The notes beneath the pieces are model-generated. The model did not search any database. It saw only the letters and a list, made by a program, of their open reading frames with translations, and had not been told where the DNA came from. A DNA stretch of 64,000 bases from NCBI GenBank assembly GCA_964626065.1, contig CAZVDE010000004.1:110-64109 (forward strand), in the 5' to 3' direction. The position numbers and the translations under genes are program-made. Source of the stretch: an uncultured Clostridiaceae bacterium. Its GTDB lineage: Bacteria > Bacillota > Limnochordia > Darwinibacteriales > Darwinibacteriaceae. Of this stretch, positions 41,548 to 50,259 are shown in pieces (positions within the stretch are counted from its first letter, which is position 1; every line of letters begins with the position of its first letter).

Positions 41548-42318
41548 TTAACCGCCTCCGTCAATTGCCAAAAGAACGTAATTCACCATCTTTGCAATAA
41601 AGGCGGAATTCGTGGGTTTACCCCTGTCTTCGCGCACCTCATAGGGAAATAAACGGTATAACTCTTCTAGGTTGCCCTTCTCCCAGGTGGCGTCCAAAGC
41701 ATAGCGCATCGCCCGTTCCACCTGAACCCCTCCCGTGGCAAAACGCTGCCCAATAGCGGGGTACAGTTTTTTAGTCACAGCATTCAGCCAGCGGGGGTAA
41801 GTGATAGCCAGCCATACGCCCTCCATAAGGTAGCGGTAGCCTTTATAGTGCGGCGGTATACCCATCGAATCGAAATACTCACGGCAGATTTCCTGCACCT
41901 GCTCCCTCGATACTTCCGGCCGCACCTGCCTTGAGTTTACTGAACAGATCTGCTTAATACGCCGGGCCAAAAGTGCCGCACCCACCGGGCGTTGGATGTA
42001 ATAATTCGCACCCAGATCCGCCGCTTTCTGCAGGGCGCTTTCGCCGGCAGCCGGCGGAGAGATGATCACTACCGCCAGTTCATCTTCATGCCAGCGTTCG
42101 CGAATCACCTTAAGTGCGCCAAGGCCACCCCTCGGCTTAAGATCGAGGCCGAGCAATACAAGATGGGGCCTAGTATCTGCAATCACTTGCAGAATGTGGT
42201 TTGCGCTGTCAAGGGCTCCCAAATAGTAAAGATCTTCTTGGCCTTGAATAAATTCACTCACTTCGTCCTTAAACCTGCGGTCGCAATCCGCCTGCAGCAC
42301 CCGGATAACCTCTGTCAT
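41548..42318 (-). CDS. spo0A: sporulation master regulator Spo0A (receiver residues atypical)
   Basis: The C-terminal Spo0A-specific DNA-binding domain is clear: HYKGYRYLMEGV...TKKLYPAIGQRFATGGVQVERAMRYALDATWEKGN...KPTNSAFIAKM. The receiver domain is present but reads ADCDRRF where Spo0A normally has ADDN, and the K-position reads YYIQRP. Confidence 0.85.
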   Translation of the reverse strand: MTEVIRVLQADCDRRFKDEVSEFIQGQEDLYYLGALDSANHILQVIADTRPHLVLLGLDLKPRGGLGALKVIRERWHEDELAVVIISPPAAGESALQKAADLGANYYIQRPVGAALLARRIKQICSVNSRQVRPEVSREQVQEICREYFDSMGIPPHYKGYRYLMEGVWLAITYPRWLNAVTKKLYPAIGQRFATGGVQVERAMRYALDATWEKGNLEELYRLFPYEVREDRGKPTNSAFIAKMVNYVLLAIDGGG

Positions 42319-43199
42319 CGCTTCCCTCCTGCCCCCCCGACCCTTCCCGCCAAAAGATAGGTCTTTGTTATTGGCGAGTACTGGAATTCTTTTTCCAGCC
42401 GGAAACGTTTTATCTTACCGGTTGAAGAAAGATGCAGCCGCGGGCCGCTGCATTTCCACTGTTCGTCGCCAATCAGGATGGTATGATCATTGTAATAGCT
42501 AATGGGCAAGTCCTTCTCGATGTATTCCAGTACTCTTCGTTCCACTTCCCCTAGATCCACTTTTGGCTTTTCACGAAATTCCACAACAAATCCGCGCCGC
42601 ACATCACTGTGAATCGTAGGCGGCTTCAGGCCCATTTCATCAAAAACAGCGGAGGTAATGTCTTCCGCACTGTGGGCCATTTTACGATAAATGAGGGAAT
42701 CAAAAGCCTGTTCAGCGATTTCGGAAGGAAAAGGCCCAAACAAAGTGGGCACTGTAACAACCACTTCCTCGCCGACCCCAATCAGCATCTCGGCGTTAAG
42801 ATTGAGAAGGGGGTAGAGGAGTTCAAAATGCTCAACAACAACTCTATGCCCCGCCGAAACTGCTTTGGTCACCGCATCGGCCAGCTCCCAAAGGGGTGAA
42901 AAAGCCATCTCGAAGCGAACATCCAGGTGGTAAGTGTGGGTCCGAAAATAATTGTTTTCTGCATCTTCCAAAACGGGTAAGGGGCGGACGTTCACTCCAT
43001 CATCATCGTTGGTCAGAACTAAACCGGGAAACATACCGCGAATGAGCAGTGATTTTCCCGCCCCCGCATCACCAACCACCCCAATCAGGCGATTTTGCGC
43101 TCCCAAATAACGCTGGGAAATAAGCATTCCCAGGTGCATCAGTCTTTGCCCGCCTCGGGGCGCATAGTAAACCGCCTGAACCAAGGTGGTATAGTGCAT
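42315..43199 (-). CDS. P-loop protein with HprK-C-like Walker A; function unknown
   Basis: 294 aa. IGVVGDAGAGKSLLIRGMFPGLVLTNDDDGVNV parallels the HPr-kinase GDSGxGKSE...L(I/V)ADD arrangement. There is no NKxD motif. The stop overlaps the spo0A ATG (ATGA). Confidence 0.6.
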   Translation of the reverse strand: MHYTTLVQAVYYAPRGGQRLMHLGMLISQRYLGAQNRLIGVVGDAGAGKSLLIRGMFPGLVLTNDDDGVNVRPLPVLEDAENNYFRTHTYHLDVRFEMAFSPLWELADAVTKAVSAGHRVVVEHFELLYPLLNLNAEMLIGVGEEVVVTVPTLFGPFPSEIAEQAFDSLIYRKMAHSAEDITSAVFDEMGLKPPTIHSDVRRGFVVEFREKPKVDLGEVERRVLEYIEKDLPISYYNDHTILIGDEQWKCSGPRLHLSSTGKIKRFRLEKEFQYSPITKTYLLAGRVGGAGGKR

Positions 43200-44042
43200 T
43201 TACAAAGTCGCCTCCACATGGCGCGCCACATGGCAGTTGATATTGATGGCCACGGGCAAACCGGCGATGTGAGTGGGGTAATCATTGATAAAGACGGCTA
43301 AGGCAGTCTGCGTTCCGCCAAAGCCCTGAGGACCCACCCCCGTTTTGTTAACCAAAGCTAACAATTCAGCTTCAAGCTCAGCCAGATGAGGTTTGGGATT
43401 GGTCGAGCCGATGGGCCGCAAAATTGCACGCTTGGCCATGAGGGAGGCTTTTTCCATCGTTCCCCCAATCCCCACACCCACAATGATGGGCGGGCAGGGG
43501 TTGCCCCCCGCTCTGGTAACCTGCTCCACGACAAAATCCTTGACGCCCTGCACCCCTTCTGCCGGTTTGAGCATGCGCAGAGCGGACATATTTTCACTGC
43601 CGAACCCTTTGGGGGCCACAATCAAGCGCAGCTTGTCACCTGCCACCAAAGACAAGTGAACTATAGAAGGCGTATTATCCTTGGTGTTGACCCGTTCCAG
43701 CGGATCGCTGACTACGCTTTTCCGAAAGTACCCTTCCTCATAAGCCTGGCGGACCCCTTCGTCAACGGCGTCCGTCAACAAGCCGCCTTCAATGCGTACA
43801 TCTTGGCCGAGCTCGGCAAAGACAACCACCATACCCGTATCCTGGCAGAGCGCCATACATCTTTCCCGAGCTATGTCAGCGTTTTCCAGAATGGTATCAA
43901 GCACGCTTTGCCCCAAGGGAGATTTTTCTGCTTTGCGTGCGCTCTGCAGTGCCTGCAGGACATCTTGGGGCAAGTTGCAGTTAGCATCGAGACAAAGTTC
44001 TTTAATCTTTTCAACAATTTCCTGGTATTTTATTACTCTCAA
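43200..44042 (-). CDS. Fe-S hydro-lyase, class I fumarate hydratase alpha subunit family (candidate mesaconase alpha)
   Basis: 280 aa. CQDTGMVVVFAELGQDV...PKGFGSENMSAL...GGNPCPPIIVGVGIGG matches the fumarase class I alpha / tartrate dehydratase alpha region. No beta subunit is adjacent. Confidence 0.8.
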   Translation of the reverse strand: MRVIKYQEIVEKIKELCLDANCNLPQDVLQALQSARKAEKSPLGQSVLDTILENADIARERCMALCQDTGMVVVFAELGQDVRIEGGLLTDAVDEGVRQAYEEGYFRKSVVSDPLERVNTKDNTPSIVHLSLVAGDKLRLIVAPKGFGSENMSALRMLKPAEGVQGVKDFVVEQVTRAGGNPCPPIIVGVGIGGTMEKASLMAKRAILRPIGSTNPKPHLAELEAELLALVNKTGVGPQGFGGTQTALAVFINDYPTHIAGLPVAININCHVARHVEATL

Positions 44043-49844: not shown

Positions 49845-49848
49845 GCTA

Positions 49849-50259
49849 TCACGCCCCCAGATCGGATCTTAAGGTGGGAATCACTTCCTGCGGCAGCGTA
49901 CTGGGAGGATAAACCCTATCAAAGCCCAATTGTCTGAATTTGGCCTCAACCTCAGACCATTCTTGGCTCCCCACCACGAGATATCCGCCGATATACATCA
50001 GAATGTCCCCGATGCCCGCTTCAATAAGGGCATCTCGTAAACCGCGCACATCAATCTCGGCGTGGCCGTATAACGAAGAAACCATGATAGCGTCCGCATT
50101 TGTCTCTAACGCGGCCTCCACAAATTCTTTTTGGGATACCAATACTCCCAGATTAACAACGTTAAACCCCGCCTCCTGAAAAGAGATTTCCAAGATCTTA
50201 TTCCCGACCGCATGCACATCCGAACCTATTACACCCAAAACCAATGTTTTCGCATCCAT
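49849..50259 (-). CDS. glmS: glutamate mutase sigma (S) subunit, B12-binding
   Basis: Begins [23 protein letters not shown]... with the DxHxxG cobalamin-binding motif. Near-collinear with clostridial MutS. Confidence 0.9.

Follow-up and report, generated by a model that had tools for sequence, protein, structure and literature searches.

A likely methylaspartate-pathway operon with homologues of the citramalate lyase CmlAB separates spoIVB from spo0A in Darwinibacteriales

Why should a block of metabolic genes stand directly in front of the gene for the sporulation master regulator? In Bacillus subtilis, spoIVB and spo0A are separated by a promoter-bearing intergenic region of about 300 nucleotides (nt). 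The DNA analysed here, a 64-kb stretch (64,000 nt; hereafter the window) of contig CAZVDE010000004.1 from an uncultured bacterium of the Darwinibacteriales, has the same recN-spoIVB...spo0A flanks as Bacillus and Clostridium, whereas eight metabolic genes take the place of the intergenic region. We find that this block is likely a methylaspartate (mesaconate) pathway operon for glutamate fermentation, in a version that uses a CmlAB-type citramalate lyase. It is a known pathway type, and not a new route for C5-dicarboxylates. What is new is the arrangement, namely a mesaconase gene for the alpha subunit only, an unstudied accessory protein resembling TsaE and AlaX, and an operon-like fusion to a spo0A gene with a decaying receiver domain; we present these as leads rather than as a discovery in hand.

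The eight genes are co-directional minus-strand open reading frames that occupy 42315-50259 in the open reading frame list of the window. Their identities come from hidden Markov model (HMM) scans with Pfam and NCBIfam/TIGR models at curated cutoffs, and these, together with the reading frames, bear out the gene identities and close packing given in a preliminary description of this DNA. In the direction of transcription, the locus consists of the following features.

50301-51689, minus strand: spoIVB, SpoIVB peptidase S55 with PDZ domain, the upstream synteny anchor (TIGR02860 equivalog, 395 bits against a cutoff of 305; Pfam Peptidase_S55, 1e-75).
50335-50375, minus strand: intrinsic-terminator-like hairpin of 12 bp with a U9 tract, in the 3' tail of the spoIVB reading frame (terminator scan, folding and conservation).
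49849-50259, minus strand: glmS, glutamate (methylaspartate) mutase S subunit, B12-binding (NF002612, 209 bits against 110; TIGR01501, 189 against 136).
48438-49844, minus strand: glmL, glutamate mutase accessory protein or reactivase, MutL family (NF040745 equivalog, 578 bits against 475; Pfam MutL, 2e-162).
46980-48437, minus strand: glmE, glutamate mutase E (catalytic) subunit (TIGR01503, 738 bits against 390).
45612-46976, minus strand: cmlA homologue, AtuA/DUF1446, putative large subunit of a CmlAB-type citramalate lyase (match to PDB 9ERQ_A/9EVF).
45313-45615, minus strand: cmlB homologue, DUF4387, putative small subunit of a CmlAB-type citramalate lyase (match to PDB 9ERQ_B; Pfam DUF4387, 2e-35).
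44052-45308, minus strand: mal, methylaspartate ammonia-lyase (MAL; TIGR01502, 557 bits against 286; Pfam MAAL_N and MAAL_C).
43200-44042, minus strand: class-I (Fe-S) fumarase alpha subunit, candidate mesaconase alpha, with a TTG start (NF004885, 413 bits against 276).
42315-43199, minus strand: the eighth gene, for a two-domain P-loop protein of 294 amino acids (aa), with no family match at curated thresholds.
41548-42318, minus strand: spo0A orthologue with a degenerate receiver domain (Pfam Spo0A_C, 4e-31, 107.5 bits; Response_reg, 35.6 bits; TIGR02875, 168 bits against a cutoff of 200).
41493-41524, minus strand: intrinsic terminator 3' of spo0A, closing the nine-gene block (hairpin and U-run, -18 kcal/mol, z = -4.7).

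Spacing within the locus is tight. As described previously, 41 nt separate the spoIVB stop codon from glmS, and the stop codon of the eighth gene overlaps the start of spo0A in the tetranucleotide ATGA. From glmS to spo0A, no intergenic gap is larger than 13 nt, and cmlA and cmlB overlap by 4 nt. Both the S and the E subunit of the B12-dependent glutamate mutase score over their equivalog cutoffs, and GlmS carries the cobalamin-binding motif DxHxxG as D14-V-H16-A-V-G19.

The identity of the lyase decides what kind of pathway this is. The preliminary description held that citramalate lyase was missing, and that it and the mesaconase beta subunit were replaced, in a variant C5-dicarboxylate route of unknown chemistry, by the two DUF products together with the kinase-like P-loop protein. 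In favor of that proposal, an HMM scan of the window proteins finds no CitDEF-type citramalate lyase, the window holds no Fumerase_C (beta) coding sequence, and the eighth protein passes the curated threshold of no family. However, the profile searches that were suggested for the DUF and P-loop products lead elsewhere. Specifically, the DUF1446 protein matches PDB 9ERQ_A/9EVF (E = 6e-155, 520 bits, residues 7-441 aligned, ~58% identity) and the DUF4387 protein matches PDB 9ERQ_B (E = 1e-22, residues 7-99), chains that are named "Citramalate lyase, subunit A (cmlA)" and "subunit B (cmlB)" in these entries; the P-loop product gives sub-threshold matches to TsaE and tRNA_SAD. A 2026 preprint employs cmlAB of Raoultella planticola, provided by I. 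Berg, as an enzyme for the direct cleavage of citramalate into pyruvate and acetate. Kronen and Berg (2015) could identify no citramalate lyase in E. coli, and noted that a DUF1446 gene lies 3' of mal both in Dictyoglomus and in the cluster of E. coli O157:H7.

By homology, then, the DUF1446 and DUF4387 pair is a CmlAB-type citramalate lyase, related to solved structures, and not a pair of unknown passengers or of substitutes in a variant route. The earlier observation of a missing lyase stands for the CitDEF type and falls for the function as a whole: the AtuA/DUF4387 pair is the "missing" enzyme, which closes the puzzle raised by the preliminary description. The eighth protein offers little to the proposed new route either, because its folds appear to be those of TsaE and of AlaX-type domains and not that of a small-molecule kinase, and because in most other clusters the eighth gene occurs together with genes for both fumarase subunits, so that its product is no replacement for the beta subunit. 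Together, these results make a new route of that kind highly improbable.

The block would thus encode the following reactions. GlmS and GlmE, kept active by GlmL, would convert L-glutamate to (2S,3S)-3-methylaspartate, from which MAL would remove ammonia to give mesaconate. A class-I Fe-S hydro-lyase, of which the block encodes the alpha subunit only, would hydrate mesaconate to (S)-citramalate, and the CmlAB homologues are predicted to cleave (S)-citramalate to pyruvate and acetate, an activity known only from the R. planticola enzyme. The product of the eighth gene may act as a conserved accessory of Firmicutes glutamate-mutase clusters. The enzyme activities in the window organism and the catabolic direction of the route are predictions from sequence. 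If they hold, the lineage, whose members are dominant uncultured bacteria of biogas reactors, would be able to ferment glutamate to acetate, pyruvate, and ammonia.

The gene set itself has close counterparts in enterobacteria. In E. coli, the cluster glmS-glmL-glmE-mal-AtuA-DUF4387-gltP-fumD-cobO is present in 1120 of 5426 complete genomes, and the enterobacterial cluster (E. coli O157:H7, Raoultella planticola) specifies the same enzymes as the window, including the AtuA/DUF4387 lyase. GlmS, GlmE, MAL, CmlA, and CmlB are 52-58% identical between the window and E. coli (CmlA 54%), whereas the values are 32% for GlmL and 25% for the fused FumD. The two clusters differ in several respects: cmlAB precedes mal in the window; the fumarase of the window is a split alpha subunit without beta, where the enterobacterial enzyme is the fused FumD; and the window lacks the transporter, cobO, and the LysR regulator of the enterobacterial cluster, while it adds the TsaE/AlaX-like gene and the location among sporulation genes.

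The methylaspartate pathway of clostridia is reportedly established biochemistry, owed to Buckel and co-workers. The clostridial cluster (C. tetanomorphum and C. tetani: glmSLE, mal, mesA/mesB, and a citDEF-type lyase) serves the same sequence of reactions as proposed for the window, from glutamate through methylaspartate, mesaconate, and citramalate to pyruvate and acetate, and its mesaconase is of the two-subunit type to which the window alpha subunit also belongs. By contrast, the window has CmlAB instead of CitDEF/CitCXG, and no mesB (beta) gene.

Several points weigh against a complete glutamate-fermentation operon, the first of which concerns the hydration of mesaconate. No Fumerase_C coding sequence is found anywhere in the 64-kb window by tblastn with a Desulfosporosinus Fumerase_C query, in agreement with the earlier remark that the fumarase alpha gene has no beta gene beside it. 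Among the metagenome loci, a beta gene adjoins alpha in none of the eight from the Darwinibacteriales lineage, as against all 17 elsewhere. As such, the missing neighbor is a real, lineage-specific feature, and this step would depend on a beta gene that lies out of view or on an unusual alpha-only enzyme. In addition, the CmlAB assignment draws on PDB molecule names, one preprint, and gene context; there are no transporter or regulator genes within the block; and the interval between the upstream terminator and glmS holds no convincing sigma-70 promoter match, with promoter-like matches there not exceeding those in shuffled controls.

One could therefore suppose that in this lineage the block falls short of a full catabolic pathway, and that without beta the route ends at mesaconate or has some other purpose. 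The absence of the beta gene at all eight lineage loci able to show it, and its constant adjacency elsewhere, are what this explanation builds on. However, the alpha gene is intact, 67-87% identical across the lineage loci, and retains all of its Fe-S cysteines (C66, C183, and C270, invariant in 14 homologues including E. coli FumD), cmlAB without a mesaconase would have no substrate, and beta genes can sit elsewhere in a genome. We thus consider an incomplete pathway quite improbable, and a beta gene elsewhere in the genome would be the simplest explanation of the pattern. A truncated alpha subunit in some strains was also considered and rejected, since the 210-aa calls in two of the loci (L002 and L004) reflect the start choice of the gene caller: the DNA is identical and the start is TTG.

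What, then, is the eighth protein? It appears to consist of an N-terminal TsaE/YjeE-like P-loop ATPase fused to a C-terminal domain with the fold of AlaX and of the ThrRS editing domain, rather than being the kinase-like protein first proposed. Its Walker A motif reads G43-DAGAG-K49-S50, and the residues conserved in the family are the lysine of that motif and, within the C-terminal half, H176, E179, D180, H197, D199, C250, R254, and H256. In TsaE Pfam scans, the best family member reaches 20.5 bits and the window protein 11.9 against a cutoff of 26.6, with sub-threshold matches in 25 of 29 members; for tRNA_SAD, no score exceeds 19.3 bits (cutoff 24), with sub-threshold matches in 15 of 29 members, over the C-x-G-P-R-x-H stretch. 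With its score below the cutoff and no tsaB/tsaD context, the protein falls outside the TsaE family proper and resembles it at the level of fold only. It differs from TsaE (YjeE/YdiB) and from the AlaX/ThrRS N2 editing domains in that similarity stays under the family thresholds, the motifs are spaced as HxxxD and Cx5H, tsaB/tsaD are not nearby, and both domains sit in one 294-aa protein. A sequence-profile link to solved structures was sought and discarded, because only the Walker A region matches.

The family is an uncharacterised, compact, and highly conserved one, embedded in glutamate-mutase clusters across Firmicutes. It counts more than 3000 members at 90% clustering as against about 250 representatives at 50%, mostly fragments; in NCBI, members carry the name [quoted passage not shown], and in JGI some of them are called "TsaE". 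No literature on it was found. Among loci outside the lineage with at least 5 kb upstream, 24 of 30 have a pathway gene and 19 of 30 glutamate mutase. In the metagenome loci, the eighth gene mostly follows directly after cmlB or mal, and it can fall between cmlB and fumA-fumB; metagenomic Firmicutes show, for example, the order glmSLE-mal-cmlAB-[P-loop]-fumA-fumB. In Carboxydothermus ferrireducens and Desulfofalx alkaliphila, the eighth gene closes a cluster of the order murI-glmSLE-(mal)-HGD-D-BcrAD-MBL-[P-loop], directly before rph-rdgB. Across such Firmicutes clusters, metagenomic ones included, the TsaE/AlaX-like protein is 50-63% identical to that of the window, and its gene stands inside or at the end of the glutamate mutase cluster. 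These other Firmicutes clusters stand beside rph or alone, have both fumarase subunits if any, and show no link to spo0A.

The clusters of C. ferrireducens (L007, 3482-10903) and D. alkaliphila (L009, 2760-10972) are of a different type in their own right. Both lie between murI and rph and combine glmSLE, to which mal may be added, with genes for one HGD-D-like protein, an activase of the BcrAD/BadFG type, a protein of the metallo-beta-lactamase fold (MBL in the order above), and the TsaE/AlaX-like protein; the lack of a mesaconase or citramalate lyase suggests another fate for 3-methylaspartate.

An unstudied family that pairs a TsaE-like with an AlaX-like domain thus travels with glutamate mutase across Firmicutes, and two candidate functions, both held with low confidence, are maintenance of glutamate mutase and tRNA proofreading against 3-methylaspartate. 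For the former, glutamate mutase is the most constant neighbor of the eighth gene (19 of the 30 loci with enough flank), and the E. coli cluster has a P-loop corrinoid adenosyltransferase gene, cobO, at the equivalent terminal position; a maintenance or assembly factor for the mutase or its cobalamin cofactor, in place of cobO, is nevertheless a tentative proposal and, on balance, a doubtful one. A more general role as a chaperone of B12 mutases was dropped, as the few orphan members have unrelated genes around them, and no other B12 mutase adjoins any that were examined.

The proofreading alternative would have the AlaX-like domain deacylate tRNA mischarged with 3-methylaspartate, the TsaE-like ATPase serving as a switch. 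That both folds are tRNA-related is consistent with it. However, all the sequence matches lie under Pfam thresholds; the motifs are H176-SAE-D180 and C250-xGPRx-H256 where AlaX has HxxxH and CxxxH, the first reading H176-x-x-x-D180 and the spacing being unlike that of AlaX; the family is acidic (pI 5.2-6.3); enterobacterial clusters do without the gene; and the literature offered no support for proofreading by this family. We rate this alternative as unlikely, somewhat more so than maintenance of the mutase.

How old is the insertion? The window flanks run asp23-nusB-...-xseA-ispA-dxs-tlyA-nadK-argR-recN-spoIVB, the canonical order for Firmicutes, which identifies the eight-gene block as an insertion that interrupts a conserved synteny. 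The order recN-spoIVB-[eight genes]-spo0A-steA is kept in L010-L014, L016-L023, and L042, and the arrangement is found in every Darwinibacteriales (formerly MBA03) relative sampled, that is, five species-level genomes, one of which is 'Candidatus Darwinibacter acetoxidans' (order Darwinibacteriales), and nine metagenome contigs. Contigs from metagenomes and metagenome-assembled genomes that encode the exact eighth protein share 99.96-99.99% identity with the window across the ten kilobases that run from spoIVB to spo0A. Between lineage loci, identities of the island proteins typically fall at 70-90%, with extremes of 58% and 94%; Spo0A, at 45-64%, is the least conserved protein of the locus.

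Because the block is shared across all of these relatives, the insertion must be old and fixed in the lineage, and we propose that the whole block entered between spoIVB and spo0A in an ancestor of the Darwinibacteriales (MBA03). A recent horizontal insertion is ruled out by the presence of the block in all relatives and by base composition, as G+C is 0.48-0.59 in the block and 0.51-0.57 in the flanks, without a clear break. The comparison of this junction among relatives, proposed earlier as a check, hence gives a divided answer: the gene order is common to the whole lineage, yet it is uncharacterised there, and the paper describing the Darwinibacteriales mentions neither a methylaspartate pathway nor sporulation.

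The remaining question is whether the location in front of spo0A has consequences for its expression. Contrary to the preliminary description, which saw no terminator after spoIVB, a hairpin with a 12-bp G+C-rich stem and nine T's lies at 50375-50335, within the last 25 spoIVB codons and about 75 nt 5' of the glmS start codon. Its folding energy is -23.5 kcal/mol (z = -5.25), which no shuffled sequence reaches, and all eight related loci spanning the junction retain it, with substitutions that leave the pairing intact (these loci include L010, L011, L012, L016, L020, L023, and L042). For example, the window stem CTTCCCGCG/CGTGGGAAG becomes CTTCCTGCG/CGCAGGAAG in L010 and L023. In L012 the spoIVB stop codon lies inside the stem, in the window it comes 3' of the U-tract, and in L010 it is far downstream, and this shifting of the stop around the hairpin indicates that the conserved element is an RNA hairpin and not a peptide tail. 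Two side observations concern the same site: a transcript ending at the U-tract would be without a spoIVB stop codon in the window species, and a short motif, (C)ATAGAGAARRAC, just 3' of the U-tract is kept even where it is non-coding (L012).

Nine genes, with gaps of at most 13 nt, are therefore packed between two terminators. In 12 relatives, the eighth gene and spo0A are set apart by a spacer of 6-30 nt with nothing but a ribosome-binding site in it. In the window, the C terminus of the eighth protein is longer by six residues, GAGGKR (42315-42335), which are absent from all relatives and create the ATGA overlap; the overlap is thus species-specific, while the tight linkage is not. Within the 864-nt eighth gene, there is no stretch of raised synonymous conservation of the kind that an embedded spo0A promoter might leave. 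Other regulatory signals are also lacking: no riboswitch or leader is found before glmS at Rfam gathering thresholds, and Spo0A boxes (TGTCGAA) number 3 in the window against about 5 expected, with none at the operon start.

Given the two terminators, the spacer with only a ribosome-binding site, and the lack of raised synonymous constraint, spo0A is most simply read as the ninth cistron, and we infer that it is probably co-transcribed with the block. The suggested coupling of this island to sporulation gene expression thereby gains support of a purely structural kind, from operon-like packing, flanking terminators, and the absence of room for a promoter.

Alternatively, the position beside spo0A could be a neutral accident; spo0A would then have promoters of its own within the coding sequence upstream, and sporulation would be unconnected with glutamate catabolism. 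Promoters within coding regions are common, the cluster sits elsewhere in other Firmicutes (e.g. murI-glm...-rph) so that its location carries no fixed meaning, and only the window species has the ATGA overlap, its relatives having the 6-30 nt spacer. On the other hand, that spacer holds a ribosome-binding site and nothing else in 12 of 12 relatives, the eighth gene shows no local rise in synonymous conservation, and conserved terminators occur only 5' of glmS and 3' of spo0A. We take the neutral explanation seriously, as a plausible one that falls somewhat short of being probable.

If co-transcription is the case, the question turns to how the Spo0A protein itself is controlled. Its orthology is supported by synteny downstream of spoIVB (recN-spoIVB-[island]-spo0A) and by a DNA-binding domain that is well conserved, as in Bacillus and Clostridium, and aligns to PDB 1FC3 and 1LQ1 at ~2e-21, although the full-length score is under the NCBIfam equivalog cutoff (TIGR02875, 168 against 200 bits). 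Unlike in Bacillus and Clostridium, the receiver domain lacks the acidic-pocket Asp11 and the phospho-acceptor Asp56: relative to B. subtilis, D11 is Cys, D56 is Gly, and K108 is Arg in the window. Across 12 orthologues, position 11 is never Asp; seven keep Asp at position 56, and the other five, the window included, have Gly there twice and Cys, Glu, and Ala once each. Lys108 is mostly Arg across the Darwinibacteriales Spo0A orthologues.

The loss of Asp11 in 12 of 12 orthologues and of Asp56 in 5 of 12, window included, is the basis for a bolder idea, namely that Spo0A has escaped phosphorelay control in Darwinibacteriales and is produced from the final cistron of a glutamate-fermentation operon. 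Taken jointly with the separate notion that the eighth protein is a proofreader against 3-methylaspartate, so that either would suffice, this is speculative and has only a small chance of being right. If the idea were true, whatever Spo0A governs, be it entry into sporulation or a regulon put to new use, would be set by the expression of an amino-acid catabolic operon and not by kinases. The configuration is a lead for further study: a sporulation master regulator that has lost its promoter region, and in several species its phosphorylation site, at the probable end of a catabolic operon. Downstream of spo0A, at 35804-38204 on the minus strand, the gene calls of L001 include spore-cortex-type genes, for a protein that combines LysM and Hydrolase_2 (SleB-like) and for two polysaccharide deacetylases. 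With the intact spoIVB, these genes suggest that the lineage retains sporulation genes.

Other features of the window lie away from this locus. Between nusB and xseA, a TsaD/Kae1-like open reading frame with a weak Pfam score (80 bits) spans 61032-61994 on the minus strand. A full-length OLE (ornate large extremophilic) RNA is present between ispA and dxs (58001-58656, minus strand; Rfam, 461 bits), and adjoining it is a 189-aa open reading frame (57416-57985) that has no Pfam match and may be an OLE-associated protein. The Rfam scan further reveals a tRNA gene at 1709-1779 and, at 9962-10175, a T-box leader (112 bits), both on the minus strand.

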